19,287 nt of DNA from a virus, in the UHGV virus genome UHGV-0298370; one strand, 5' to 3'. The notes under the pieces are model-generated. The model made no database searches. It saw only the letters and a list, made by a program, of their open reading frames with translations, and was not told where the DNA came from. Shown here one piece after another: positions 1,747 through 18,258 of this stretch. The position numbers were made by a program, and so were the translations under genes. Position 1 is the stretch's first letter, and every line of letters begins with the position of its first letter.

Positions 1747-3144
1747 TCACCCTCCTATAGCAACATAACAGCCCGATACAGGATTTGCGGCAGTCGCTAC
1801 GCTGGAAAAACCACGAAAGCCGCTTTTTGTGATTGCGGAGGCAGATAGTATTCCGGCACCCGAAGGTGTATGCCCCACGTGGCTGGCAACCATCACGTAG
1901 CACGCCGACGGAAAAGCGAAAGGGAAATTGTTTAAATATCCCGCATCATCCCCCAGACTTCCCCCAAACTGCCCCACTCCCCACTGGATAATAAGTGGTC
2001 TCCGAACGCCAGAAATAATTAATGGAATTGCTACATACCCATTCACCAACATAGCGCCGGTTGTTGCGCCAGCCAGAGCCAATTCCCCCAAACCAAGGTA
2101 TGTGAGAAGACCAGCTACATCCTTTCCACTCAAATTGGTAAGCGTATTGTCCAGCGGTTGTTTACCTGCCAGCGCATTAAGCATTGTCGTGGCAAAGTTC
2201 GGATCATTCCCCAGTGCCGCCGCCAGTTCGTTCAGTGTATCCAGTGCAGCAGGTGCAGAACCCACCATTCCTGCAATCGCCGATTTCACAAAAGCCGTAG
2301 TGGCAATCTGTGTATTGTTGACCGACTGCGCCGCCGTGGGGGCTGTTGGCGTTCCGGTGAGTGCCGGACTCGACAACGGTGCTTTTAGTGCCAGCGCATT
2401 GTTAATGGTGGTACTGAAATTCGGATCATTGTTAATGGCTGAGGCTATTTCTTTCAGCGTGTCCAGCGTGGCTGGCGCACCATTAATAAGGGCCGTCAGT
2501 GCCGCCTGTACAAACGCAGTGGTCGCAACCTGCGTGGTATTATTCCCCGCCGCTGGCGTTGGCGCTTTGGGGGTTCCGGTAAATGTCGGGCTGGCTTTTG
2601 GCGCGTACTGTGAATGCGGGTCCGGTGCGGCAAGATGTTTTGCCATCTGATCATCCGCGTACACCTTCAGCTCCAGTGCCTTGTCATCCACATACTTGCG
2701 GGTTGCCAGCACTACAGCAGGGTCGATTTTCAGGGTGATATTGTCCGTACTGCTGGTAATCAGCACCATGCGCACGGTCTGAGTGCGCCCGCTACCTTCA
2801 GCCAGTTGCGGCTTATAGCTTTCCGGGCAGTTGCCCACGGCAATCAATGCCCCGGACTCATCAAACAAGCCCACTTCACGTATCCACCAACCGCCCTCGT
2901 TTTCAGGGATCACCTGTTCGGCAATAATCTGGCTGCTGTTCTGCGGGTCGATATAAAGCATATTCAGCGCAGCCCGGCGTTTCTCATTTACCAGTGCCGT
3001 CTGCTTTGCGTCCGGCGTTGGCAATACTCCACCGCCATCGCCCACCGCCATATGGGTAATTTTTAGCGGCACACCGAGCGCGGCGGCGCTGGCAAGTTTC
3101 GCCGCGCCAATATCCGTCAGCAGGGTATAAAATTTTGTGCTCAT
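1747..3144 (-). CDS. H: tail fibre protein gpH
   Basis: 465 aa; N-terminus MSTKFYTLLTDIGAAKLA...MAVGDGGG...AVGNCPESYKPQLAEGSGR closely resembles P2 gpH N-terminal constant region; internal ATTAFV/NDPNF repeats typical of the family; ATG start, ATGA overlap with gpI. Confidence 0.9.
   Translation of the reverse strand: MSTKFYTLLTDIGAAKLASAAALGVPLKITHMAVGDGGGVLPTPDAKQTALVNEKRRAALNMLYIDPQNSSQIIAEQVIPENEGGWWIREVGLFDESGALIAVGNCPESYKPQLAEGSGRTQTVRMVLITSSTDNITLKIDPAVVLATRKYVDDKALELKVYADDQMAKHLAAPDPHSQYAPKASPTFTGTPKAPTPAAGNNTTQVATTAFVQAALTALINGAPATLDTLKEIASAINNDPNFSTTINNALALKAPLSSPALTGTPTAPTAAQSVNNTQIATTAFVKSAIAGMVGSAPAALDTLNELAAALGNDPNFATTMLNALAGKQPLDNTLTNLSGKDVAGLLTYLGLGELALAGATTGAMLVNGYVAIPLIISGVRRPLIIQWGVGQFGGSLGDDAGYLNNFPFAFPSACYVMVASHVGHTPSGAGILSASAITKSGFRGFSSVATAANPVSGCYVAIGG
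2152..2589. repeat. internal tandem duplication inside H (two ~73-codon units)
   Basis: Protein residues ~186-257 and ~258-331 repeat the pattern TGTP.APT.AA..NNTQ.ATTAFV....APA.LDTL.E.A.A..NDPNF.TT..NALA.K.PL; visible as repeated DNA blocks. Confidence 0.6.
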
Positions 3145-6083: not shown

Positions 6084-6507
6084 GTTTCACCGTCCACATT
6101 TCTTCAGGTGCATCAGGTTCCGCTATAGCTTCAACGCTCGACACACTGCCGTCAGTGCTGACCAGCACACGTTCCGTCAGTTGCAGGTTCAGGCTGATAT
6201 CACAGACATCGTTGCGCAGAATATCCACCTCAAAGGTGAATAGCTTTTCCCGTAACGCCGGGTTATTGATGGCATCGGGCTGGTTATCCCTCAGCCACAG
6301 CAAAACCGGGGCCATCAGCAGATTCTGGTCGCCGCTGAAATCCTCAATCACCACGTTGAGGGTATAATGGTACTCCCATGACATGGAGCTGGCCCCCGTG
6401 GCAACCAGCGAACCGTTATCCACAAACAGATGCAGTTTGTCCGGGTTATTGCGGACATAAGGCACCGCTTTATTGAGGGCGTGGCGCAGGGATTGTGGTT
6501 TGTTCAC
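6076..6507 (-). CDS. R: tail completion protein gpR
   Basis: Start set at GTG (VNKPQSLRHALNKAV...) with AGGAG SD ~8 nt upstream, rather than the upstream TTG of the ORF track; P2 gpR-like (…NPDKLHLFVDNGS…). Confidence 0.8.
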   Translation of the reverse strand: MNKPQSLRHALNKAVPYVRNNPDKLHLFVDNGSLVATGASSMSWEYHYTLNVVIEDFSGDQNLLMAPVLLWLRDNQPDAINNPALREKLFTFEVDILRNDVCDISLNLQLTERVLVSTDGSVSSVEAIAEPDAPEEMWTVKRG

Positions 6508-6760
6508 TGTTTCGCTCCTGACACGCAATAATCATGTCCACTTTGTCTGCACAGACCGCCCAGGCGGCCTCCGTTTCATCCAGCAACGCATTCAGATCAC
6601 CGTTAGTGCGCGGTGCTGCCTGCTCCAGCCGACACGGCGTCACTCGCGGACAACCACTGACGGTAAGCTGCACCTCCGGTGAGTGCCGGACGTTCCCGCA
6701 GCCGGATAATGTCAGCAGGCAAAGGAGTATCAGCCCAGTGGCGTAAATCCTCGTTCTCAC
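6470..6760 (-). CDS. lysC: LysC, Rz1-like outer-membrane lipoprotein spanin
   Basis: GTG start with GAGGA SD; N-terminal signal plus lipobox LLTLSGC; begins inside lysB in a different frame and extends past it into the start of R, as lysC does in P2. Confidence 0.7.
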   Translation of the reverse strand: MRTRIYATGLILLCLLTLSGCGNVRHSPEVQLTVSGCPRVTPCRLEQAAPRTNGDLNALLDETEAAWAVCADKVDMIIACQERNSEQTTIPAPRPQ

Positions 6761-7031
6761 GTTTCAGTTCCTCGATCCGGCGTTGTCGTTGTCTCAGCTG
6801 TGCGCTGGTCTGTTCTGCTTCGGCATAGAGCCGCGCCTGCTCCCGGTTATTGGTTTCAGTCAGAATGGACAGGCTGATAAGCTGGCTGTTGCTCTTTGCC
6901 AGTGCCTGGCTTTTGCTCTGCAGCTCGTTTGCCTGCGTGCTGATGGTCTGGCTGGCATCAGCCAGCCGCCACGTCTGCCAGCCCAGCGCCGCCAGTAATA
7001 ACGCCAGCACAACCAGCAGCAACCGGTTCAT
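6603..7031 (-). CDS. lysB: LysB, Rz-like inner-membrane spanin
   Basis: 142 aa; N-terminal TMD (LLLVVLALLLAALGW) followed by long charged coiled-coil-like region; ATG start overlapping lysA stop (ATGA). Confidence 0.8.
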   Translation of the reverse strand: MNRLLLVVLALLLAALGWQTWRLADASQTISTQANELQSKSQALAKSNSQLISLSILTETNNREQARLYAEAEQTSAQLRQRQRRIEELKRENEDLRHWADTPLPADIIRLRERPALTGGAAYRQWLSASDAVSAGAGSTAH

Positions 7032-7405
7032 GCTGCTACCTGTTGCGCCATCTGATTACGGGTGATCCAGAAGGCAATAACGGTCAGTAGATAAAAGACC
7101 AGGGTAATAGCCCACCCCGTCCATGCGAGACTTACAACAATCAGCAATCGCATCACCCAACAGATAAATACGTTTTCTTTTCGGGTAATTGTCTTCAGCA
7201 AAGATGCCCTTAACTCCTGCCAGAGCGGGCCATTCTGAATTAACGCAGCCAGTGCTACCGGAATTACCGCCCATGTCAGCAAACAGGCTACCCAAACGCC
7301 GGACGCTGCCAGTACCGGAAAGATCCCCTGCGGATACACCATTGCTGCGATTAACAGCGCCATCCATAACATCAGAAACAGCCCGCTGATTAATTTCTTT
7401 TTCAT
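7028..7405 (-). CDS. lysA: LysA, lysis-timing membrane protein
   Basis: Start set at ATG (MKKKLISGLFLMLW...) with GGGAG SD; multi-TMD small protein in the P2 lysA position between K and lysB. Confidence 0.7.
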   Translation of the reverse strand: MKKKLISGLFLMLWMALLIAAMVYPQGIFPVLAASGVWVACLLTWAVIPVALAALIQNGPLWQELRASLLKTITRKENVFICWVMRLLIVVSLAWTGWAITLVFYLLTVIAFWITRNQMAQQVAA

Positions 7406-7406
7406 T

Positions 7407-7919
7407 TCAGTTTGCTCCCTGTAAACACCAGGCCATCTCCCGCGCACGGCGGTTATCCAGCCCCTGATTAAACACACCTTTTACATAAACCCAGCGCGGC
7501 AACTGTCGGCACGCATCCGCCCAGCGCCGCTGATTGAGCAATTTCACCAGCGTGGAACTACAGGCATTGCCCGTCCCCACGTTGAAGGCAAACGACACCG
7601 TAGCGTCATACACCTTCTGTGGTGGCTGTTGCTTCACACACCTTTCCAGTGCCCGCTCCACACGCAGCACGTTGGAGATCAGCCCTTCTGCTGCCTGTCG
7701 TTCCGTGATTGTTTTGCCGGGAATGACGCCCGATGTATTACCAATGCCGTCGGTCCAGACACCCGCGCTGCACTGATACGGCTGCAGACGACAGCCTTCG
7801 TAATCGGCAATCAGTTTCAGCCCCTCCACGGAGGTGTGAAGCTGCTGAAAACCCGGCAGCGTGGCAGCAATAGCCAGCACGGCCCCGACAAGGCAGCGTT
7901 TAACGATTGATGGATTCAT
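7407..7919 (-). CDS. K: endolysin gpK, P1 Lyz-type SAR lysozyme
   Basis: 170 aa; catalytic region ...DYEGCRLQPYQCSAGVWTDGIGNT... (Glu-8aa-Asp-5aa-Thr lysozyme triad pattern); N-terminal weakly hydrophobic Gly/Ala-rich segment RCLVGAVLAIAATLPGF with Cys9, plus Cys43 and Cys50 flanking the catalytic Glu41, the pattern of signal-anchor-release endolysins such as P1 Lyz. Confidence 0.9.
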   Translation of the reverse strand: MNPSIVKRCLVGAVLAIAATLPGFQQLHTSVEGLKLIADYEGCRLQPYQCSAGVWTDGIGNTSGVIPGKTITERQAAEGLISNVLRVERALERCVKQQPPQKVYDATVSFAFNVGTGNACSSTLVKLLNQRRWADACRQLPRWVYVKGVFNQGLDNRRAREMAWCLQGAN

Positions 7920-8115
7920 AGTCCTCCCGCGAGATCTGCCCGTCGCGCAGAAGCTGGTAGGCTTTGTGTTTGTAGTACCAGTTGATAGCCAGCATCAGCA
8001 CACCAATCATCAGGCCGCCCAGCGTTGAGGCATCCTTGATGGACAAATCGCCCAGCCAGGCCAGCACGACGGCGATGCAATACGTGATAAAGGCGCTGAT
8101 TCGCTCAAGCGTCAT
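7900..8115 (-). CDS. Y: holin gpY (short, two predicted TMDs; possibly pinholin-like)
   Basis: 71 aa, two hydrophobic segments (ISAFITYCIAVVLAWLG and LGGLMIGVLMLAINWYY) and charged C-terminus; located between X and K as P2 Y. Confidence 0.7.
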   Translation of the reverse strand: MTLERISAFITYCIAVVLAWLGDLSIKDASTLGGLMIGVLMLAINWYYKHKAYQLLRDGQISREDYESINR

Positions 8116-8118
8116 AAT

Positions 8119-8322
8119 TCAGTCCCATAGCTGGACGGTCTGCACGGTGGTGGTGGTCGGTATGTCCGGCAGCTCCACCTGCAGCCCGTGAGGTAAAAAG
8201 GGGCCGTATTCGGCAAGCCCCGGATTTGCCTTCAGTACCTGCTCCGTGACACCCTGCGTGCGCCCGTAATGACGCCAGCAAAGCGCGTCCACCGTGTCAT
8301 ACTGATACGCACGCACTTTCAT
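8119..8322 (-). CDS. X: tail protein gpX
   Basis: 67 aa, same length as P2 gpX; ...YGRTQGVTEQVLKANPGLAEYGPFLPHGLQVELPDI... resembles P2 X. Confidence 0.85.
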   Translation of the reverse strand: MKVRAYQYDTVDALCWRHYGRTQGVTEQVLKANPGLAEYGPFLPHGLQVELPDIPTTTTVQTVQLWD

Positions 8323-8786
8323 CAGATAAGCTCCACTGTGCAGTGCGGCGCATCCTGCACCCGGCTGATGGCCCAGCGGGCGTCACGCCACAAATCACCG
8401 CTGGCTTCCGCCAGTTCTTCGCCTCGCTTCACACCGGATGCCGTGGCGTCATAGTCCTGGTATCGTTCGTTGAGCATGGCGCGTGCCCAGCAGTAAACCG
8501 CGTTGAAATAGTGCTGAATGCGCTCACTTTTCCCGTCCAGCTGTTCCGCCGGAACCTCTGCCAGCGAGGCATACCCCAGCATCTGCTGGCGTCTGCGAAA
8601 CTCATACAGCTCTGCGTTGACCTCCGAAATTGCCGACAGGGCAACCTGCTTTAAACGCGGCTGCGTCACCGTGCCGTCAGTGCGCATGACACTGCGAAAC
8701 TCCGACAGGTCCACATCAGGCCAGAACGGCGTATTTCTGATGATTTCCGCCTGTTCCGGTGCCTGTTCTGGCGCAACAAACTTCAT
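8322..8786 (-). CDS. L: head completion/stabilisation protein gpL
   Basis: Start set at ATG (MKFVAPEQ...) with AGGAG SD ~9 nt upstream; an upstream GTG at 8849 is possible. ...IRNTPFWPDVDLSEF... and ...LWRDARWAISRVQDAPHCTV... resemble P2 gpL. Confidence 0.85.
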   Translation of the reverse strand: MKFVAPEQAPEQAEIIRNTPFWPDVDLSEFRSVMRTDGTVTQPRLKQVALSAISEVNAELYEFRRRQQMLGYASLAEVPAEQLDGKSERIQHYFNAVYCWARAMLNERYQDYDATASGVKRGEELAEASGDLWRDARWAISRVQDAPHCTVELI

Positions 8787-8881
8787 GCTGCTTTCTCCTG
8801 AAATAGAGGGCGGTGGACGGGGTTTTGATGAGGCTGTGCCTTTCGCCACCCCGTGCCGCCCGTGCGCGGGGGCACGTTCTG

Positions 8882-9532
8882 TCAGCGGCTGTCATTGCGC
8901 AGTCTGCGCTCCAGCTGCTGTTTGTCTTTTTTCACGCCACAGCGGGGATCGAGCTGTAACGCATGGTTGAGATGATTAAGGGCGGACGCCGGATTGCTTT
9001 CACTCAGGACAGCGCCAATCGCTTTATGCAGACGCGCCCGTGACTGGTCCGGCATATCCAGACCGTCTGTCAGCTCCAGCGTCTGCAGCAACAGATCGGC
9101 ATCAAAGCCGGTGGCGGCAAGCATTGCGCTCTGCGCGGCGTCTGCCATTTCCTCTGCCAGCACGGTCTGCACGTTGCGGTTACCCAGCGGCATCACCCAG
9201 CCATGACGCAGGGCATGACGCCCGATCTCCAGCGCTCCGGCATAATCTCCGGCATCAATGCGCCACAGCATCACGTACATCAGCACGTCATCCTGTTGAG
9301 CGCCTCCGGCAGCCAGGACACCCTCTGCCCAGGCGGCGTACTTCGGCAGCAGCTCCACCTTGATTTCCGCTTTTTTGACCGTGGACTGAACGCCCTTGAG
9401 ACGGCGGCGGTCTTCCGCCAGTTGCAGCAGCATCAGGTCATAGCCCGATGCGTGGCGAACACTGCCGCCCTCGCGGGCGGCCTGTTCAGCCTGAACGCGC
9501 AGGCGATGCTGCCGTGCGGGACTCAGGCTCAT
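8882..9532 (-). CDS. M: terminase endonuclease (small) subunit gpM
   Basis: 216 aa; MSLSPARQHRLRV...LLPKYAAWAEGVLAAGGAQQDDVLMYVMLWRIDAGDYAGALEIGRHAL... closely parallels P2 gpM. Confidence 0.9.
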   Translation of the reverse strand: MSLSPARQHRLRVQAEQAAREGGSVRHASGYDLMLLQLAEDRRRLKGVQSTVKKAEIKVELLPKYAAWAEGVLAAGGAQQDDVLMYVMLWRIDAGDYAGALEIGRHALRHGWVMPLGNRNVQTVLAEEMADAAQSAMLAATGFDADLLLQTLELTDGLDMPDQSRARLHKAIGAVLSESNPASALNHLNHALQLDPRCGVKKDKQQLERRLRNDSR

Positions 9533-9535
9533 GGA

Positions 9536-10594
9536 TTACGCTCCGGTTTCTGCTGCAGCGGCGCTGAAATCGCCAATCTGGATGTTTTCCACCAGTGCGG
9601 CGCAGCGGTAGTCCTCAACCACATAGGCTTCGTTAACGGATTCAAAATTTTCAATCCGGTCACGTTTCGGGTTGTCGATAACTGAACGGCGGCGGGTATC
9701 TTCCTGCCAGTAGATGGACAGGTTATCCAGACGGGTGATCAGCAGCGCATTCGGCGGGAAGAACGGCGCACGCACCGCCTGCAGGCCACCCATGCGTTTC
9801 TGACTGATGATCATATCGGCAGCCAGTTTTTCACTGTTTTCCTGCTCTTTGTTGACCAGTGGGAAATACTTGTCAGACAACAGTTCACGACCGCAAATCA
9901 CCACCAGATCGTCATCGTCCTGGTAGACCACGTCGATAAGCTCATTGACGGCATCCATCACCACGGCGTCCAGGTTGGCATATTCGCCACCTTTCCCGAC
10001 TTTCACCGCACCCGGTGTGGTTTCACCGCCCGTGGTGGTGCTGCCCATGACGTGATCCGGTGCATCTTCACGGATTTTCTGCAGCCAGCCTTTATTCACA
10101 TCCTGCAGCAGCGGGTTTTCGCTACGGTTTGAGGTTTTCGCACGCTTCACGCCGTTAAAGCCGATCATGATGCGGTCCAGTGCCTGACGTTTCACGATCG
10201 CGTCACGAATACGCACCTGGAAATCCTGAAACTTCGCCCACAGGTCCAGCTTCGCGTAGGTCAGCACCGTGTCAAAGTTGGTCTGCTCGCATTTGTATTC
10301 CACATCGACCATCAGCGTCGGATCGACAGGCTCACGCTCTTTTGCGGTGGTATCAGTGGTTCCGGCAATGGTGCTGCCAACACCCAGCCCCAGCAGCTGA
10401 CCAGACTGCTCGGTCACTGGCGTGACGTTAATCAGCGTCAGGAAAGCGGCGGATTGCTGGATCTGGTCTTCCAGCGTCTGCTGCACAGACGGCTCCACGG
10501 TGAACTTGCTGGACAGTTCTTCAACTGCCACACCGTTCAGACGCGCCAGCTGCTGCAGGTAAGCGTTAAAAGCAAAGCGGGTATTCTTCTTCAT
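9536..10594 (-). CDS. N: major capsid protein gpN
   Basis: 352 aa; MKKNTRFAFNAYLQQLARLNGV...KFTVEPSVQQTL...GFNGVKRAKTSNRSENPLLQDV...VISQKRMGGLQAV... near-collinear with P2 gpN. Confidence 0.95.
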   Translation of the reverse strand: MKKNTRFAFNAYLQQLARLNGVAVEELSSKFTVEPSVQQTLEDQIQQSAAFLTLINVTPVTEQSGQLLGLGVGSTIAGTTDTTAKEREPVDPTLMVDVEYKCEQTNFDTVLTYAKLDLWAKFQDFQVRIRDAIVKRQALDRIMIGFNGVKRAKTSNRSENPLLQDVNKGWLQKIREDAPDHVMGSTTTGGETTPGAVKVGKGGEYANLDAVVMDAVNELIDVVYQDDDDLVVICGRELLSDKYFPLVNKEQENSEKLAADMIISQKRMGGLQAVRAPFFPPNALLITRLDNLSIYWQEDTRRRSVIDNPKRDRIENFESVNEAYVVEDYRCAALVENIQIGDFSAAAAETGA

Positions 10595-11586: not shown

Positions 11587-13353
11587 ATGAACACCACACT
11601 GACACCCGCAGATCTCGATCCCCGTCGGCAGGCCATGCTGCTGTACTTTCAGGGATACCGCGTAGCCCGCATTGCTGAAATGCTGGGCGAGAAAGTTGCA
11701 ACCGTTCACAGCTGGAAAAAACGCGACAAGTGGGGTGACTATGGGCCGCTGGATCAGATGCAGCTCACCACCGCCGCACGCTACTGCCAGCTCATTATGA
11801 AGGAGCACAAAGAAGGGAAAGATTTCAAAGAAATTGACCTGCTGGCGCGCCAGTCGGAGCGCCACGCGCGGATCGGCAAGTTTAACAATGGCGGTAACGA
11901 AGCCGACTTAAACCCTAACGTCGCCAACCGCAACAAAGGCCCGCGCCGTCAGCCGGAAAAGAATGTTTTCACCGATGAACAGATTGAGAAGCTGGAAGAA
12001 ATTTTCCATTCCTCCATGTTCAACTACCAGCGCCACTGGTGGGAAGCCGGAAAAACCAACCGCATCCGCAACCTGCTGAAGTCACGCCAGATCGGCGCGA
12101 CCTTTTACTTTGCCCGTGAAGCCCTGATTGACGCCCTGCTTACCGGACGTAACCAGATTTTCCTTTCTGCCAGTAAGGCACAGGCTCACGTCTTTAAGCA
12201 GTACATCATAGACTTCGCCAAAGAAGTCGAGGTGGAGCTGAAAGGCGATCCGATGGTGCTTCCTAACGGAGCCACGCTTTACTTCCTCGGCACCAATGCC
12301 CGCACGGCCCAGAGTTATCACGGCAACCTGTATCTGGATGAATATTTCTGGATACCGAAATTCCAGGAGCTGCGCAAAGTGGCTTCCGGTATGGCTATTC
12401 ACAAAAAATGGCGACAAACCTATTTTTCCACGCCATCCAGCCTGACACACAGTGCTTATCCGTTCTGGTCCGGTGCGCTGTTCAACCGTGGGCGCAACAA
12501 GGCCGACAAGGTGGACATCGACCTGTCCCACAGCAATCTGGCCCCCGGCCTGCTGTGCGCAGACGGGCAATACCGCCAGATAGTCACCGTGGAAGATGCG
12601 GTGCGCGGCGGCTGTAACCTGTTCGACCTTGACCAGTTGCGCATGGAGTACAGCCCGGACGAATACCAGAACCTGCTGATGTGCGAGTTTGTGGACGATC
12701 TCGCGTCCGTGTTCCCGCTCAGCGAGCTGCAGGCGTGCATGGTGGACAGCTGGGAAGTCTGGACCGACTTTCATGCACTGGCTCTGCGCCCGTTTGGCTG
12801 GCGCGAAGTGTGGATCGGTTATGACCCGGCAAAAGGTACGCAAAACGGCGACAGCGCCGGATGCGTAGTGGTGGCACCGCCAGCCGTGCCTGGTGGTAAG
12901 TTCCGCATTCTTGAGCGTCACCAGTGGCGTGGGATGGACTTCCGCGCCCAGGCTGACGCCATCAAAAAACTGACCGAGCAGTACAACGTGACCTACATCG
13001 GCATCGACTCGACAGGTGTCGGCCACGGGGTTTACGAGAACGTGAAAGCGTTTTTTCCAGCCGTCCGGGAGTTTGTCTATAACCCCAATGTTAAAAACGC
13101 CCTGGTACTCAAGGCCTACGACATTATCAGCCACCGCCGTCTGGAGTTTGACGCCGGACACACCGACATAGCGCAGTCATTCATGGCAATCCGTCGCGCC
13201 ACCACCGCGAGCGGCAACCGCCCAACCTATGAAGCCAGCCGCAGCGAAGAAGCCAGCCACGCCGATCTGGCCTGGGCAACGATGCACGCACTGTTTAACG
13301 AACCGCTGCAGGGCGAATCCGCCAATACCAGCAATATTGTGGAGATTTTTTGA
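11587..13353 (+). CDS. P: terminase ATPase (large) subunit gpP
   Basis: 588 aa; N-terminus MNTTLTPADLDPRRQAMLLYFQGYRVARIAEMLGE... and body match P2 gpP; divergent from O as in P2. Confidence 0.95.
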   Translation: MNTTLTPADLDPRRQAMLLYFQGYRVARIAEMLGEKVATVHSWKKRDKWGDYGPLDQMQLTTAARYCQLIMKEHKEGKDFKEIDLLARQSERHARIGKFNNGGNEADLNPNVANRNKGPRRQPEKNVFTDEQIEKLEEIFHSSMFNYQRHWWEAGKTNRIRNLLKSRQIGATFYFAREALIDALLTGRNQIFLSASKAQAHVFKQYIIDFAKEVEVELKGDPMVLPNGATLYFLGTNARTAQSYHGNLYLDEYFWIPKFQELRKVASGMAIHKKWRQTYFSTPSSLTHSAYPFWSGALFNRGRNKADKVDIDLSHSNLAPGLLCADGQYRQIVTVEDAVRGGCNLFDLDQLRMEYSPDEYQNLLMCEFVDDLASVFPLSELQACMVDSWEVWTDFHALALRPFGWREVWIGYDPAKGTQNGDSAGCVVVAPPAVPGGKFRILERHQWRGMDFRAQADAIKKLTEQYNVTYIGIDSTGVGHGVYENVKAFFPAVREFVYNPNVKNALVLKAYDIISHRRLEFDAGHTDIAQSFMAIRRATTASGNRPTYEASRSEEASHADLAWATMHALFNEPLQGESANTSNIVEIF

Positions 13354-14060
13354 TGCCCCCAATCCCAACTAACCTCATGACTATCGCGGGACTTCCGGTG
13401 GATAGCTTTTTCTTTGCTTACCAGTATGAGTGGAACACTGGCCCAAAGAGTAGAAACCGTGTACTCACAAAAATGCGCCAGGCAGGCGCGGATTTCTTTT
13501 TTTCCTATGAAGCCCTGAACGATGCACTGCATACCGGGCGTAACCAGATTTTCCTCTGCTGCAGCACAGCATCTGCGCAGGCAATCAAAGCCTGTGTATC
13601 AGCATTCTTAAGCCAGGCCGCAGCTTATACGCACACTGGAAAAATAAAATCAGGCAAAAGTCATCTGGAGCTTCCGAATGGTGCAGTAATTTATTTTACC
13701 GACCTCAGCAGTCTCACCTCCGCACTCAGTGGAAATGTTTACGTGTCAGAGTATGCCTGGAGTGAATCACCGAGAAATATGATTGCCATCGCTAAAGGGA
13801 TTTCTATGCACGCACACTACCACGCCACCTACTACACCACTCCCAGCCCTAACCCAGAGGCACGGCAGGAATATAAAAAGCTATGCAGAAACAACAGCGT
13901 AACCAGCATGGTGTTCACCGCAGATGACGCAGCAGCATCTGGAGCAATGTTGTTTACTGATAACTGGCTGAACGATATGAAAAAAGAATTATCAGAAGAG
14001 GACTGGAAAATGCTGTTTATGTGCGAATGGCCTCTCGCTAGCAAGGAACTGGCAGAATGA
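13353..14060 (+). CDS. terminase-ATPase-like paralog (truncated, diverged copy of gpP central region)
   Basis: ATG at 13353 overlaps the P stop (TGATG) and its stop overlaps the Q start (ATGA). Protein aligns by eye to gpP residues ~140-400 (FAYQYEWNTGPKSRNR / FNYQRHWWEAGKTNRIR; EALNDALHTGRNQIFL / EALIDALLTGRNQIFL; GNVYVSEYAW / GNLYLDEYFW). A 24-nt stretch at 13532-13555 is 23/24 identical to 12141-12164 in P. Confidence 0.6.
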   Translation: MPPIPTNLMTIAGLPVDSFFFAYQYEWNTGPKSRNRVLTKMRQAGADFFFSYEALNDALHTGRNQIFLCCSTASAQAIKACVSAFLSQAAAYTHTGKIKSGKSHLELPNGAVIYFTDLSSLTSALSGNVYVSEYAWSESPRNMIAIAKGISMHAHYHATYYTTPSPNPEARQEYKKLCRNNSVTSMVFTADDAAASGAMLFTDNWLNDMKKELSEEDWKMLFMCEWPLASKELAE

Positions 14061-15085
14061 GCAAACGTAAAAACACCAAGCAGGTAACAGTTGATCACGA
14101 CACAAAACCAAGCAACGGCCCAACGGCTGAGGCTTTCAGCTTTGGTGATCCCATCCCCGTGCTGGACCGCCGCGAACTGCTGGACTATGTGGAATGCGTA
14201 CAGATGGATCGCTGGTATGAGCCGCCCGTCAGCTTTAATGGACTGGCGCGCACCTTCCGCGCCGCCGTGCATCACAGTTCCCCGATTGCAGTAAAGTGCA
14301 ACATTCTGACCAGTACCTATATCCCTCATCCGCTGCTTAGCCAGCAGGCTTTTTCGCGTTTTGTGCAGGACTATCTGGTATTTGGTAACGCCTACCTGGA
14401 GAAACGCACGAACCGCTTTGGTGAAGTTATCGCCCTTGAGCCAGCTTTGGCAAAATACACCCGACGCGGATTAGACCTGGATACCTACTGGTTTGTGCAA
14501 TACGGTATGACAGCCCAGCCGTATCAGTTCACGAAAGGCAGCATTTTTCATCTGATGGAACCGGACATCAACCAGGAGATCTACGGCCTGCCAGGTTATC
14601 TTTCTGCCATCCCGTCAGCCCTGCTCAACGAGTCCGCCACACTGTTCCGCCGTAAGTATTACATCAACGGCAGCCATGCAGGTTTCATCATGTACATGAC
14701 CGATGCCGCGCAGAACCAAGAAGATGTGAACAACCTCCGCAACGCAATGAAAAGCGCCAAAGGGCCAGGCAACTTCCGCAACCTGTTTATGTACTCTCCT
14801 AACGGCAAAAAGGACGGGCTTCAGATTATCCCGTTGTCAGAAGTCGCGGCGAAGGATGAGTTTCTGAATATCAAGAACGTGAGTCGGGACGACATGATGG
14901 CGGCACACCGTGTGCCGCCGCAAATGATGGGGATAATGCCTAATAATGTTGGGGGCTTTGGAGATGTAGAGAAGGCGAGTAAAGTATTTGTACGTAATGA
15001 ATTATTGCCATTGCAAAAAAGATTACAAGAAATAAACAATTTCATAGAAGAAGGTGTTATTGAATTCCAAGAATACCATTTCTAA
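14057..15085 (+). CDS. Q: portal protein gpQ
   Basis: 342 aa; ...EAFSFGDPIPVLDRRELLDYVECVQMDRWYEPPVSFNGLARTFRAAVHHSSPI...NESATLFRRKYYINGSHAGFIMY...NGKKDGLQIIPLSEVAAKDEF... matches P2 gpQ. Confidence 0.95.
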   Translation: MSKRKNTKQVTVDHDTKPSNGPTAEAFSFGDPIPVLDRRELLDYVECVQMDRWYEPPVSFNGLARTFRAAVHHSSPIAVKCNILTSTYIPHPLLSQQAFSRFVQDYLVFGNAYLEKRTNRFGEVIALEPALAKYTRRGLDLDTYWFVQYGMTAQPYQFTKGSIFHLMEPDINQEIYGLPGYLSAIPSALLNESATLFRRKYYINGSHAGFIMYMTDAAQNQEDVNNLRNAMKSAKGPGNFRNLFMYSPNGKKDGLQIIPLSEVAAKDEFLNIKNVSRDDMMAAHRVPPQMMGIMPNNVGGFGDVEKASKVFVRNELLPLQKRLQEINNFIEEGVIEFQEYHF

Positions 15086-15087
15086 TT

Positions 15088-15118
15088 AAAAAAAAGGGAG
15101 GCAACCTCCCTTTTTTTT
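15088..15118. terminator. bidirectional rho-independent terminator between convergent Q and cargo gene
   Basis: A8-GGGAGG-CAA-CCTCCC-T8: 6-bp GC stem, 3-nt loop, flanked by A-run and T-run so it reads as a terminator on both strands; overlaps the TAA of the minus-strand cargo gene. Confidence 0.75.
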
Positions 15119-16883
15119 AAACATTATCGTATAACTCTTGTATTTTCGTTGGATTTGCAAAAAATCTTGCCGGATAGGCATTCGGGTAATTATCTTCAAT
15201 GTACTCTTCAGCACGTTGAATTAATGCACTTAATTCTTCGGAAAGATTTTTTTCATCTGGAACAAGAATTTCTGAGCTATTATGTATCCCAGAAACGTTG
15301 CTCAATAGTACAGACGCATAGTATCTATTACCATGCGTAATAATTAAATGCTTGCGACTATGGGTCGTTTTATCTACTGATAGTAATGTTTTACCGATCA
15401 ACTTATCTATAACTCTAAAATGTAGAACAGTATTGATAAGTTTTAAACCACTTAATCTTGGATTGAAAATAGTTTTATATAGAGAGCCTTCAAAATTTTC
15501 AAAAAACCTACCGCGATTTGATTTTAGTGTCGATACAACCGTATTATTTTTACTTAAACATGCGAGTGCATTGAGCGCCTCATCCAAGTCAATGACTTTC
15601 GTATTTGTCTGTGAATGATCTTCATCTGTTCTTAGTAACTGATATTGATATCCTTCAAGCACTAACTCCCTTGCCAATCTATGTTGATCTGCCTGCTGCG
15701 ATGCAAAATCTCTTCCCAATACTCTATTTTGGAAATTGTTAGCTTTTGTAATTGCATTTGCAGTTAAATTATCAGTATCATCATCTATAACAATGAATCT
15801 AGCTGGCACTTTGAGTCTATATATGTTTTCACCAAGCGCATCTTTACATGCGCCAATACTACTGACTGTTTGTGCACCATTAATGACACTTACATCACGA
15901 AAATCAAAAATCCCTCTCTCTATATTAGGAGCTGCGTTTCGTCTATGAGGAACAACTTCCTTAACCAGTACAGTAATCCCATTATTATAAAACCAAAACA
16001 TATCAGGATTATCTATAGCTGTCTTTTTTATTTCCTCATTCACTTCTGTTTTACCAAGCATATTCCTTATGTTTTTTGTAAATAATCGAGCACCATGCTC
16101 TTCCCACCATTCTGCAACTTGATCACCACTAATAGCCCCGTAAAAAGCTTGATATGGTTCATTCAAAAATCCAAAACGCTCAATTTCAACCCTGTTAAGA
16201 TCAATTTGATTTCGAGAGCCATTCTGTAACCAATGCATCATATCTTCAGAGGATATTAAATGAACCTGAAATCCCCAGTTCTCTTTAGGCTCATCCTCAG
16301 GTGTAAAAGCTGCAGCGTTTAATTGATATTGCCATTCCCGCATATCATTTAATATTTCCTCTGCAGCACCTTTTTTACCTGTATGCGCCATCGCAAAGAT
16401 GAACTTGTATTCAAAACTACTTAAAGCCGCACTTATTTCCCCGCTTTTATTTTGCAATATGGAATCAAATAATTCGTATCTTTCACTTTGTAGCTTCTCA
16501 CAAGCATCCTTAAAACACATAAAATCGGCTCTTGTCCAAGTGCCGTTTCCCGATTGGTGAAATTTTGATTGAACAACAACAACGATTTTTTCGTTATGGT
16601 TGATTGCTATTCCATCTATACCACCATCTTCACTACTATCACATACAGACTCCCCTGCATACTTATCATCCACACATCCTAACTGATACATAGTGAATGC
16701 AGCTAAAGCCCTGCTAGCCATTTTTACATCATAGTCTGCTTGGCCTGGTGCACACTCTCTTTTATGGATGAATTCTTCATATCTCTTACGTAATACAGAT
16801 CCTAGCCTCTGAGCCATAACCTGTGCTGTCGCAGGTGCAGCAATAGCATTATCTTCAAGCCGAATATCAGTTACAAAAGCCAC
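15117..16883 (-). CDS. Mrr-type nuclease-domain protein with AIPR-like architecture (candidate abortive-infection/defence protein)
   Basis: Long AT-rich ORF; start uncertain (TTG 16940 without SD, GTG 16883 with GGAGGG SD, ATG 16817). N-terminal motif SEDGGIDGIAINHNEKIVVVVQSKFH resembles the Mrr catalytic PD-(D/E)xK core (D-G-G-I-D ... Q-x-K). Size and layout are reminiscent of AIPR-family proteins; not verified by HMM. Confidence 0.65.
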   Translation of the reverse strand: MAFVTDIRLEDNAIAAPATAQVMAQRLGSVLRKRYEEFIHKRECAPGQADYDVKMASRALAAFTMYQLGCVDDKYAGESVCDSSEDGGIDGIAINHNEKIVVVVQSKFHQSGNGTWTRADFMCFKDACEKLQSERYELFDSILQNKSGEISAALSSFEYKFIFAMAHTGKKGAAEEILNDMREWQYQLNAAAFTPEDEPKENWGFQVHLISSEDMMHWLQNGSRNQIDLNRVEIERFGFLNEPYQAFYGAISGDQVAEWWEEHGARLFTKNIRNMLGKTEVNEEIKKTAIDNPDMFWFYNNGITVLVKEVVPHRRNAAPNIERGIFDFRDVSVINGAQTVSSIGACKDALGENIYRLKVPARFIVIDDDTDNLTANAITKANNFQNRVLGRDFASQQADQHRLARELVLEGYQYQLLRTDEDHSQTNTKVIDLDEALNALACLSKNNTVVSTLKSNRGRFFENFEGSLYKTIFNPRLSGLKLINTVLHFRVIDKLIGKTLLSVDKTTHSRKHLIITHGNRYYASVLLSNVSGIHNSSEILVPDEKNLSEELSALIQRAEEYIEDNYPNAYPARFFANPTKIQELYDNV

Positions 16884-16985
16884 AGTCCCTCCATAAAGAC
16901 ATCTGGTACAACTCAATGCTGGGAATAGTGCACATTTCAATGAGATAAATCCACTAATAATCTAGGATTTATGAGTTAGCGCGCG

Positions 16986-17139: not shown

Positions 17140-18258
17140 TTAGTTCGTAATGCCAATTTCCTTCAAAACTTTAGCCATTTCCGTCTGACTTAACTTGTTC
17201 CTGAACAAAGGGAAATTTTTCATTTTTTCCGCTCGTTGCCCTTTTGAAATAGTAATCTTTCCTGATGCTGATAACTCAGAGTCAAAAAAATAACATATTG
17301 TTGAATTTGAATTCTCCATATTTGACTTGATACAATTCCATATGCTTTCTTTTTTCATTTCACACATTCTAGGACCAAAAATGATCCCTTTAACAACATT
17401 AGCATCATGATGAAAAATATGTCCAATATTTCGATTTACGCGTCTTTGAACATGCCGCTCACTCCCTATTCCTGCATTTGCCTCTGGAATAAACATTCGA
17501 TATTCAGCTTCATATCTCCAAAATCTATTTTTAGTTAAAAATAACTCTGCAACATTTGCGCTTGGGTCTAGAAGTGAAACCTCTTTAGCCTGATTACTAT
17601 ATTTTATTTGCTTAACTGGAAAATTAAATTTATCTGATGAAAATAAATTTTCTCTTAGCTTCATTCCAGGATGTGGCACGCCATTAATATTAAAATCCTG
17701 CGTTTCATAAATCACAACACAACCACTAAAGCCTGCAGCATAATGCGCCCACATCATACGATCTAACGCATTAGCTGAAAATGACACACTGAATACTGCA
17801 GGAACTATTTTCCTATACAACCTTTCTTTGATACTGTTCTCGCAAAGTGAGACCAAAAATTGGCGTGGTTCAGGAATATTCCCATAAATAGCGGAATTAA
17901 TCACATTGATAGGTAGTAAACCATCATTTATGATCTTACGTATCTCATCAACGTGTGAGTCAAACAGGCTATCTAATGACTCAATGCTACTTTTTATTTT
18001 TTTTCCTCTAAAAATACGATTCAATCCCTTATGTATCTTCAAATTACTCAAATCTAATATGTGACTCAAATTTTCATAGGATTTATCGCAAGGAGAACGC
18101 AATAAAATATCCCATAATTTCAATTTATTATCAAAACGATAATCTATATTGAGATCATTAGGATCATTCAATTGCGCAGGAGCGGAAAAATATAATTCAT
18201 TATAACGAATAGCTTTCTCGAAGAAGAAGTCCGGACGGTAATACTTGAAAAGATACAT
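17140..18258 (-). CDS. DUF2971-like protein (candidate defence-associated protein of unknown mechanism)
   Basis: 372 aa, AT-rich; N-terminus MYLFKYYRPDFFFEKAIRYNELYFSAPAQLNDPND matches the hallmark DUF2971 N-terminal pattern (KY..........LYFS.P..xNDPxD); ATG start; terminator-like hairpin downstream. Confidence 0.7.
   Translation of the reverse strand: MYLFKYYRPDFFFEKAIRYNELYFSAPAQLNDPNDLNIDYRFDNKLKLWDILLRSPCDKSYENLSHILDLSNLKIHKGLNRIFRGKKIKSSIESLDSLFDSHVDEIRKIINDGLLPINVINSAIYGNIPEPRQFLVSLCENSIKERLYRKIVPAVFSVSFSANALDRMMWAHYAAGFSGCVVIYETQDFNINGVPHPGMKLRENLFSSDKFNFPVKQIKYSNQAKEVSLLDPSANVAELFLTKNRFWRYEAEYRMFIPEANAGIGSERHVQRRVNRNIGHIFHHDANVVKGIIFGPRMCEMKKESIWNCIKSNMENSNSTICYFFDSELSASGKITISKGQRAEKMKNFPLFRNKLSQTEMAKVLKEIGITN

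Follow-up and report, generated by a model that had tools for sequence, protein, structure and literature searches.

How does a P2-like prophage lyse its host when the holin and endolysin of its lysis operon have no meaningful similarity to those of P2? The question is raised by UHGV virus genome UHGV-0298370, analysed here over its whole stretch of 19,287 nucleotides (the window). At positions 7407-8115, on the minus strand, a 71-residue open reading frame (ORF) and a 170-residue ORF occupy the places of the P2 genes Y and K, and are called Y and K below. The answer that we favour, with a probability of about 0.72, is that these genes belong to the lysis module of a P2-like prophage (Peduoviridae, of the Wadgaonvirus/Felsduovirus type) in which a two-helix holin of the HP1 family and a signal-arrest-release (SAR) lysozyme of the P1 Lyz type replace P2 Y and K, while LysA, LysB and LysC remain and lysis follows a stepwise mechanism. 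This answer turns on the following features:

7900-8115, minus strand: class II holin of 71 residues at the Y position (ORF and hydropathy, PF16080, PHROG 20)
7407-7919, minus strand: SAR endolysin at the K position, 170 residues, 18.6 kDa, a GH24/T4-type lysozyme of the P1 Lyz subclass (PF00959, match to 1XJT)
7848-7895, minus strand: predicted SAR segment, K codons 9-24, CLVGAVLAIAATLPGF (hydropathy, cysteine conservation, model)
7752-7799, minus strand: catalytic stretch of K, codons 41-56, EGCRLQPYQCSAGVWT (alignment with P1 Lyz)

K is well supported, by sequence and by its structural model, as a SAR endolysin of the P1 Lyz type, the class that a preliminary description of this DNA had proposed. 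The start of K is MNPSIVKRCLVGAVLAIAATLPGFQQL. Its N-terminus reads MNPSIVKR and continues into the segment listed above, with Lys7-Arg8 directly before it. By hydropathy, residues 9-24 are the sole hydrophobic segment of the protein, and seven of these 16 residues are Gly, Ala or Thr. K has in this way the weakly hydrophobic, Gly/Ala-rich N-terminal segment after basic residues that is expected of a SAR domain; its insertion energy is marginal on the crude, position-independent scale used (about +5.5, compared with -3.2 for the first helix of LysA).

A PF00959 lysozyme domain was found in K with Pfam (E = 4.4e-40), and the best match of K among solved structures is P1 Lyz (1XJT, E = 2e-26). 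Glu41, Cys43, Cys50 and Thr56 of K align with Glu42, Cys44, Cys51 and Thr57 of P1 Lyz, in the arrangement Glu41-Gly-Cys43-x6-Cys50-x5-Thr56. Judging from this alignment, Glu41 is the catalytic residue, Cys50 stands at the catalytic Asp/Cys position, Cys43, two residues past the Glu, is the partner cysteine, and Thr56 completes the triad at exactly the P1 spacing. Glu41 and Thr56 are invariant in an alignment of 46 sequences. Cys9, inside the segment, is the predicted isomerising thiol, so that each of the three regulatory cysteines of P1 Lyz has a counterpart in K. In P1 Lyz, the cysteine of the catalytic triad, as defined for that enzyme, is kept in a disulfide until activation (PMC3556154).

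The preliminary description was right about the Gly/Ala-rich, weakly hydrophobic N-terminus with Cys9, and it placed Glu41, Cys43, Cys50 and the string EGCRLQPYQC (residues 41-50) correctly. It went wrong in having Cys43 and Cys50 bracket Glu41, since both follow it in the sequence and a Tyr stands at position 40. For the same reason, its word 'caged' for the cysteine pattern is a mislabel. Caging involves a catalytic Glu flanked on either side by a cysteine, and an Asp at the second catalytic position. Such a pattern (Cys-Glu-Gly-Cys and a catalytic Asp) belongs to Lyz103 of Erwinia phage Era103, whose disulfide caging was reportedly described by Kuty et al. in 2010. We aligned K directly with Era103 gp49 (Lyz103), HP1 Lys, RrrD and the endolysin of phage Midge. 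Lyz103 is, like K, a SAR GH24 lysozyme with a cysteine in the segment and a cysteine two residues after the catalytic Glu. However, gp49 reads DCEGCKRQAYKD, that is, D-C-E-G-C...Y-K-D with a catalytic Asp, whereas K has D-Y-E-G-C...Y-Q-C. Since K has Tyr40 ahead of its Glu and a cysteine, Cys50, in place of the Asp, the Lyz103-type subclass is ruled out for it.

Chance is not an issue for this pattern, given a lysozyme domain at E = 4e-40 and the presence of cysteine at all three positions (9, 43 and 50) in 98 of 99 close homologues with an intact N-terminus. Co-variation was followed in a more diverse set, made of the 150 nearest representatives of 50%-identity clusters. Thirty-three of these have an N-terminal hydrophobic segment, and 30 of the 33 carry EGC...C. 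The segment cysteine is found in 28 of the 30 (the two without it look N-terminally truncated) and in 0/3 diverse homologues with a catalytic Asp, an association with a Fisher p of 0.003 in the less similar part of the set, uncorrected for relatedness.

The third cysteine carries the argument, because disulfide regulation cannot be diagnosed from the domain pair by itself. EGC...C is also present in at least 20 homologues without an N-terminal segment among the 150 representatives, and this is one of several observations that weigh against the favoured reading. Another is the place of Cys9. In K this residue directly follows Lys-Arg (Lys-Arg-Cys), on the cytoplasmic border of the segment, whereas Cys13 of P1 Lyz, about six alignment positions further towards the C-terminus, is in mid-helix. 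Cys9 also falls in the least confident part of the structural model (residues 1-10 have a mean predicted local distance difference test score, pLDDT, of 60). Given this edge position and low model confidence, a reach of Cys9 to Cys43 is only presumed.

These same observations would suit a K regulated by tethering and refolding alone, as is R of phage 21, with Cys50 just catalytic and Cys43 a bystander: EGC...C is frequent among homologues that have no export signal, Cys9 is not at the Cys13 position, and R21 and RrrD show that tethering suffices to regulate an enzyme of the same fold. We consider such a K quite improbable, since the cysteine of the N-terminal segment co-varies with the domain pair, the number of cysteines is odd (seven in all, the same count as in P1 Lyz), which leaves one thiol unpaired, and P1 Lyz (E = 2e-26) is a closer match to K than R21 is (E = 1e-17). 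RrrD, the R21-like enzyme of DLP12, differs from K in having a catalytic Asp and no cysteine at any of the three regulatory positions.

Besides the regulatory trio, K contains two more cysteine pairs, Cys94/Cys120 and Cys137/Cys165, which are probably structural disulfides of a periplasmic enzyme. Cys94 and Cys120 co-occur in 9 of 22 homologues with an N-terminal hydrophobic segment. The Cys137/Cys165 pair is nearly confined to such homologues (21/22, compared with 1/24 of those without the segment), and this fits an exported enzyme that folds in the oxidising periplasm.

The AlphaFold model of K, built on the 46-sequence alignment, has a pLDDT of 94.5. Residues 11-26 are helical in it and confidently packed on the enzyme body, which is the fold of the P1 Lyz subclass. 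Its best match in the PDB is 1XJT, deposited as active full-length P1 Lyz, with a template modelling score (TM-score) of 0.86, compared with 0.57 for 1XJU, the inactive P1 Lyz without its SAR domain. Domain identity, residue pattern and fold are in this sense seen directly.

The model also bears on whether the N-terminus is an ordinary Sec signal peptide that is cleaved off, leaving a mature periplasmic K that is inactive by other means and in which Cys9 has no role. In its general layout the N-terminus does resemble a signal peptide (Lys-Arg, then a short hydrophobic core and Ala16-Ile-Ala18), and SAR domains are often taken for signal peptides by predictors, HP1 Lys being one such case (PMC7312051). 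However, the segment packs on the enzyme as in full-length active P1 Lyz, and the SAR-less form fits worse. Furthermore, a segment cysteine that co-varies with the domain pair (28/30 and 0/3) and is kept in 98/99 close homologues is unexpected for a discarded peptide. A cleaved N-terminus thus seems to us very improbable.

As a P1 Lyz-type SAR endolysin, K shares with P1 Lyz (1XJT, 1XJU), the SAR prototype activated by disulfide isomerisation, the GH24 fold, the Glu-Gly-Cys-x6-Cys-x5-Thr pattern, the segment cysteine and the seven cysteines, at 35-37% identity in Foldseek alignments. It differs, apart from the place of the segment cysteine, in having no counterpart of the insertion of about 11 residues that follows the FNVG motif in P1 Lyz. 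K also adjoins its own holin inside a P2-type late operon; P1 lyz we take to be unlinked to lydA/lydB on the P1 gene map.

Which kind of holin accompanies this enzyme? The preliminary description had called it a short holin of 71 residues with two transmembrane domains, and this is what we found: two hydrophobic helices by hydropathy, at residues 6-22 and about 29-47, followed by a charged C-terminus with five Lys/Arg. It had also set the protein apart, as of pinholin size, from the 93-residue Y of P2, and the family assignments agree. P2 Y belongs to PF04550, a family of three-helix holins, whereas no match to PF04550 was found in Y with Pfam, and Y passes the threshold of the HP1 holin family, PF16080 (36.7 bits, threshold 28.8). 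In control searches against Pfam, HP1 hol (84.6 bits for PF16080), P2 Y and EssD each matched their own family only; no NCBIfam model matched any of the holins tested. Y further matches PHROG 20 holins (1.9e-26), is 100% identical to KP12.peg.320 and to the holin of phage Cartapus, and the RefSeq name of a protein identical to it is 'HP1 family phage holin'. By family match and by its architecture (small size, two helices, charged C-terminus and a 20-nucleotide overlap with the downstream endolysin gene), Y is an HP1-family class II holin.

The founder of this family has been studied experimentally. The holin of Haemophilus phage HP1 killed E. coli without lysis or leakage of beta-galactosidase and was needed for phage release; HP1 Lys alone lysed cells, phage release was azide-sensitive, and the authors concluded that hol/lys are a pinholin and a SAR endolysin (PMC7312051). 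HP1, another member of the Peduoviridae, resembles the window in several respects. Its hol is a PF16080 holin, hol and lys overlap, there is no dual start, a LysB-like gene comes next, and the cysteine pattern of HP1 Lys is of the P1 type as in K (Cys11, Glu47-Gly-Cys49...Cys56). It differs in that its cassette sits after the tail genes and not after gene X, in having no LysA and in a less hydrophobic helix 1 of the holin (1.44, compared with 2.12 in Y). Identity to the window is about 21% for the holin and 33-34% for the endolysin.

The cassette was also compared with 80 viral contigs retrieved through gene X, all with an X at least 90% identical, so that only close relatives are covered. Y and a SAR lysozyme stand together in 80/80 of them. 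Taken together with membership in the HP1 family and the HP1 experiments, this constant pairing suggests, by analogy, that Y may form pinholes.

Y would not work, though, in the way known from phage 21. The 71-residue two-helix holins of phage 21 (S21/R21) and of the E. coli prophage DLP12 (essD/rrrD), the pinholin prototype, stand upstream of a SAR GH24 lysozyme, as in the window, and a small-xxx-small-xxx-small motif in helix 2 is common to both (Ser30-xxx-Gly34-xxx-Gly38 in Y, Gly40-xxx-Ser44-xxx-Gly48 in the phage 21 family). However, the phage 21 type has a dual start and a weakly hydrophobic helix 1 with a mean Kyte-Doolittle value of 0.56 (in the phage 21-like EssD), and Y has neither: there is a single start codon, Leu3 being encoded by CTT, and helix 1 reaches 2.12. 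Similarity to the phage 21 holin family, PF04971, is weak (23.2 bits, under the threshold of 26). With so hydrophobic a helix 1, a mechanism in which this helix leaves the membrane probably does not apply to Y.

The value of helix 1 adds to the points against our reading, and so do others that concern the holin. In pairwise comparison with the HP1 holin, the similarity of Y is low (E = 0.02 at the identity given above). The HP1 holin itself has given unusual topology data (PMC7312051). Canonical holins serve as partners of SAR or secreted endolysins in P1 and fOg44 (PMC6116005), and because P1 itself uses a canonical holin, a SAR endolysin as partner is no proof that a holin is a pinholin.

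These points would fit a Y that is a canonical large-hole holin, triggering the SAR endolysin K by depolarisation as P1 LydA does for Lyz. The hydrophobicity of helix 1 is at the level of an ordinary membrane anchor, the score lies below the phage 21 family threshold and no dual-start motif is present. In addition, a heptamer model of the identical KP12.peg.320 is of low confidence, with a pLDDT of about 51 (PMC9902359). On the other hand, Y scores above the threshold of a family whose founder kills without releasing beta-galactosidase, it adjoins a SAR lysozyme, and never a soluble endolysin, in all 80 close relatives, and the small-xxx-small-xxx-small motif is kept in its helix 2. We therefore regard a large-hole Y as unlikely, and retain an HP1-family holin that putatively forms pinholes in the favoured reading.

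How do these two genes sit in the operon? The late genes of the minus strand follow the order N, M, L, X, the 71-residue ORF, the 170-residue ORF, LysA, LysB, LysC, R and S, and those flanking Y and K are:

9536-10594, minus strand: capsid gene N
8882-9532, minus strand: M
8322-8849, minus strand: L
8119-8322, minus strand: X
7028-7405, minus strand: LysA-like membrane protein, 125 residues, four transmembrane helices (PHROG 162, NF038378, hydropathy)
6603-7031, minus strand: LysB, inner-membrane spanin subunit (Rz equivalent), 142 residues (TIGR03495, PHROG 89)
6470-6760, minus strand: LysC, outer-membrane lipoprotein spanin subunit (Rz1 equivalent) (NF038368, PF23793)

Gene order and coupling are both seen directly. 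The last 20 nucleotides of the holin gene are the start of K, whose ATG is preceded at 3 nucleotides by a GGGAGGA Shine-Dalgarno sequence within the 3' end of the holin gene. One nucleotide separates the K stop from the LysA start, and the LysA stop and the LysB start share an ATGA. Y, K, LysA and LysB are translationally coupled within a long late operon. A scan of the coding strand for promoters and terminators gave no signal above shuffled expectation, which fits genes embedded in a long operon, and an Rfam search of the window matched no family. Plus-strand antisense ORFs across 7407-8115 were considered and dismissed; there is no support for them.

The P2 cassette (Y, K, lysA, lysB, lysC) lies at the same place of the late operon, between X and R, and has the same overlapped spanin genes. 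Identity between P2 and the window is 61% for X, 51% for R, 40% for LysC, 32% for LysB and 26% for LysA. In contrast, P2 K has no hydrophobic segment and is a soluble, lambda R-like enzyme, whose similarity to K of the window (E = 0.014 over 24 residues) is not significant. Since Y and K lack meaningful similarity to their P2 counterparts inside a conserved operon, holin and endolysin have been exchanged as a pair.

The retention of LysA, LysB and LysC, which the preliminary description had asserted, was borne out: all three genes are found downstream, LysB and LysC reach curated cut-offs and LysA belongs to the PHROG family of P2 LysA. LysB matches TIGR03495 phage_LysB with 174 bits (cut-off 92.75) and PHROG 89 at 5.6e-46, and has an N-terminal transmembrane helix. 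LysC matches NF038368 P2_Rz1 with 124 bits (cut-off 27) and PF23793 LysC at 1.5e-15; it has the lipobox LSGC, with Cys21 counted from a GTG start. The two genes overlap at 6603-6760 in different reading frames and LysC runs past LysB, as in P2. LysB and LysC thus have the features of a P2-type two-component spanin.

LysA matches PHROG 162 (2.9e-43) and NCBIfam NF038378, and aligns with P2 LysA at E = 4e-7. In the P2 record, lysA is annotated as 'nonessential; affects timing of lysis'. Putatively, LysA of the window is an antiholin or modulates the timing of lysis. Of the 80 close relatives, about 53 have LysA and about 25 lack it, and the cassettes without it include some whose holin and endolysin are 98-100% identical to those of the window. 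Another LysA allele shares only about 40% identity, and Salmonella phage RE-2010 has no LysA. This variable presence fits the P2 record. It is tempting to propose that in enterobacterial P2-like phages of this kind the Y-type holin is a mechanistically distinct pinholin, with helix 1 staying in the membrane, and that the four-helix LysA is its dedicated, dispensable antiholin, although we hold this to be doubtful. If LysA were such an antiholin, populations could tune lysis timing by gain, loss or swap of lysA.

Many 296-residue K-LysA fusion proteins are found in public sets at the junction of the two genes (7405-7477, minus strand), one of them on 30 contigs. A programmed frameshift was rejected as their origin, the shift being at different codons between entries. 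Ahead of its ATG, LysA has 24 further codons of open frame, so that any indel there gives a fusion call, and the fusions are most likely sequencing errors or decayed prophages.

How, then, would these proteins bring about lysis? We hypothesize that K is exported by Sec and tethered in the inner membrane by its weakly hydrophobic N-terminus, as its homology and hydropathy suggest. In the tethered enzyme, a periplasmic Cys43-Cys50 disulfide would block the catalytic Cys50, as in P1 Lyz. Meanwhile Y would build up in the membrane until, at a set time, small lesions collapse the membrane potential; this step is modelled on its family and on the HP1 experiments. Depolarisation would speed the release of the SAR segment. 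The thiol of Cys9 could then attack the Cys43-Cys50 disulfide, forming Cys9-Cys43 and freeing Cys50, and the released segment would refold onto the body of K, with which the likeness of the model to the active P1 form is consistent. Finally, K would degrade the cell wall and the LysB/LysC spanin would disrupt the outer membrane, LysA acting as an optional modulator of timing. What is said here on export and tethering, on the disulfide switch, on depolarisation by Y and on LysA is taken by analogy from P1 Lyz, HP1 and P2; that the mechanism of these particular K and Y alleles rests on computation is a further point against it.

Is such a cassette new? It is real and common, and has already been annotated and described; there is nothing new in it. 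Several complete E. coli genomes contain the exact 709 bp (100% identity), and 1031 of 5426 complete E. coli genomes (about 19%) have a match to the cassette, annotated "lysozyme | HP1 family phage holin". Among phage records, 58 match the cassette DNA, the highest identity being 98.4%, to Escherichia phage 500465-1 of the genus Wadgaonvirus, and positions 6400-8400 of the window are likewise 98.4% identical to that phage. K is 98% identical to the endolysin KP12.peg.319 of Klebsiella phage KP12, which was described in 2023 as P1 Lyz-like, with a conserved SAR domain, in a P2-type cassette; its authors sought a pinholin partner, and purified and spot-tested the endolysin (PMC9902359).

Near-identical annotated cassettes are found in KP12, 500465-1, Cartapus, vB_EcoM-813R9, Salmonella RE-2010 and other phages of the Fels-2 group, with no substantive difference, except that RE-2010 and about a third of close relatives have no LysA. 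Escherichia phage Midge, whose annotation reads 'holin class II / SAR endolysin / putative antiholin / i-spanin / o-spanin', carries a more distant allele, with an endolysin 63% and a holin 29% identical to those of the window. Thus, many enterobacterial P2-like prophages take the SAR-endolysin route instead of using the holin and soluble endolysin of P2, and holin and endolysin are swapped as a pair while the spanins stay. For annotation, we suggest 'HP1-family class II holin, putative pinholin' for Y, 'P1 Lyz-type SAR endolysin' for K and 'putative antiholin' for LysA. The endolysin is of practical interest as an enzyme, because its KP12 homologue has already been purified and spot-tested.

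Some other features of the window were noted in passing. On the plus strand, an ORF of about 235 residues (13353-14060) separates gene P of the terminase large subunit (11587-13353) from the portal gene Q (14057-15085); on the P2 gene map, P and Q abut. A truncated paralogue limited to the terminase ATPase domain (Terminase_6N 3.7e-16, PHROG 3746 2.9e-84), the ORF product is 31.5% identical to residues 142-368 of P.

P2-like phages have been reported to carry variable defence cargo at the portal-side end, and two genes lie beyond the portal here, both on the minus strand. The first (15117-16940) encodes a 607-residue AIPR/AbiU-like abortive-infection protein (PF10592 7e-35, PADLOC AbiU 7e-25, PHROG 1841) and the second (17140-18258) a 372-residue DUF2971 protein that matches the PADLOC candidate system PDC-S31 (3e-23). 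Both are likely anti-phage defence genes. At the other end of the window, two opposed tail-fibre assembly (Caudo_TAP) genes, at 746-1339 on the plus strand and 1311-1745 on the minus strand, adjoin a tail-fibre gene at 1747-3144, a layout typical of an invertible or exchanged tail-fibre module for host range.

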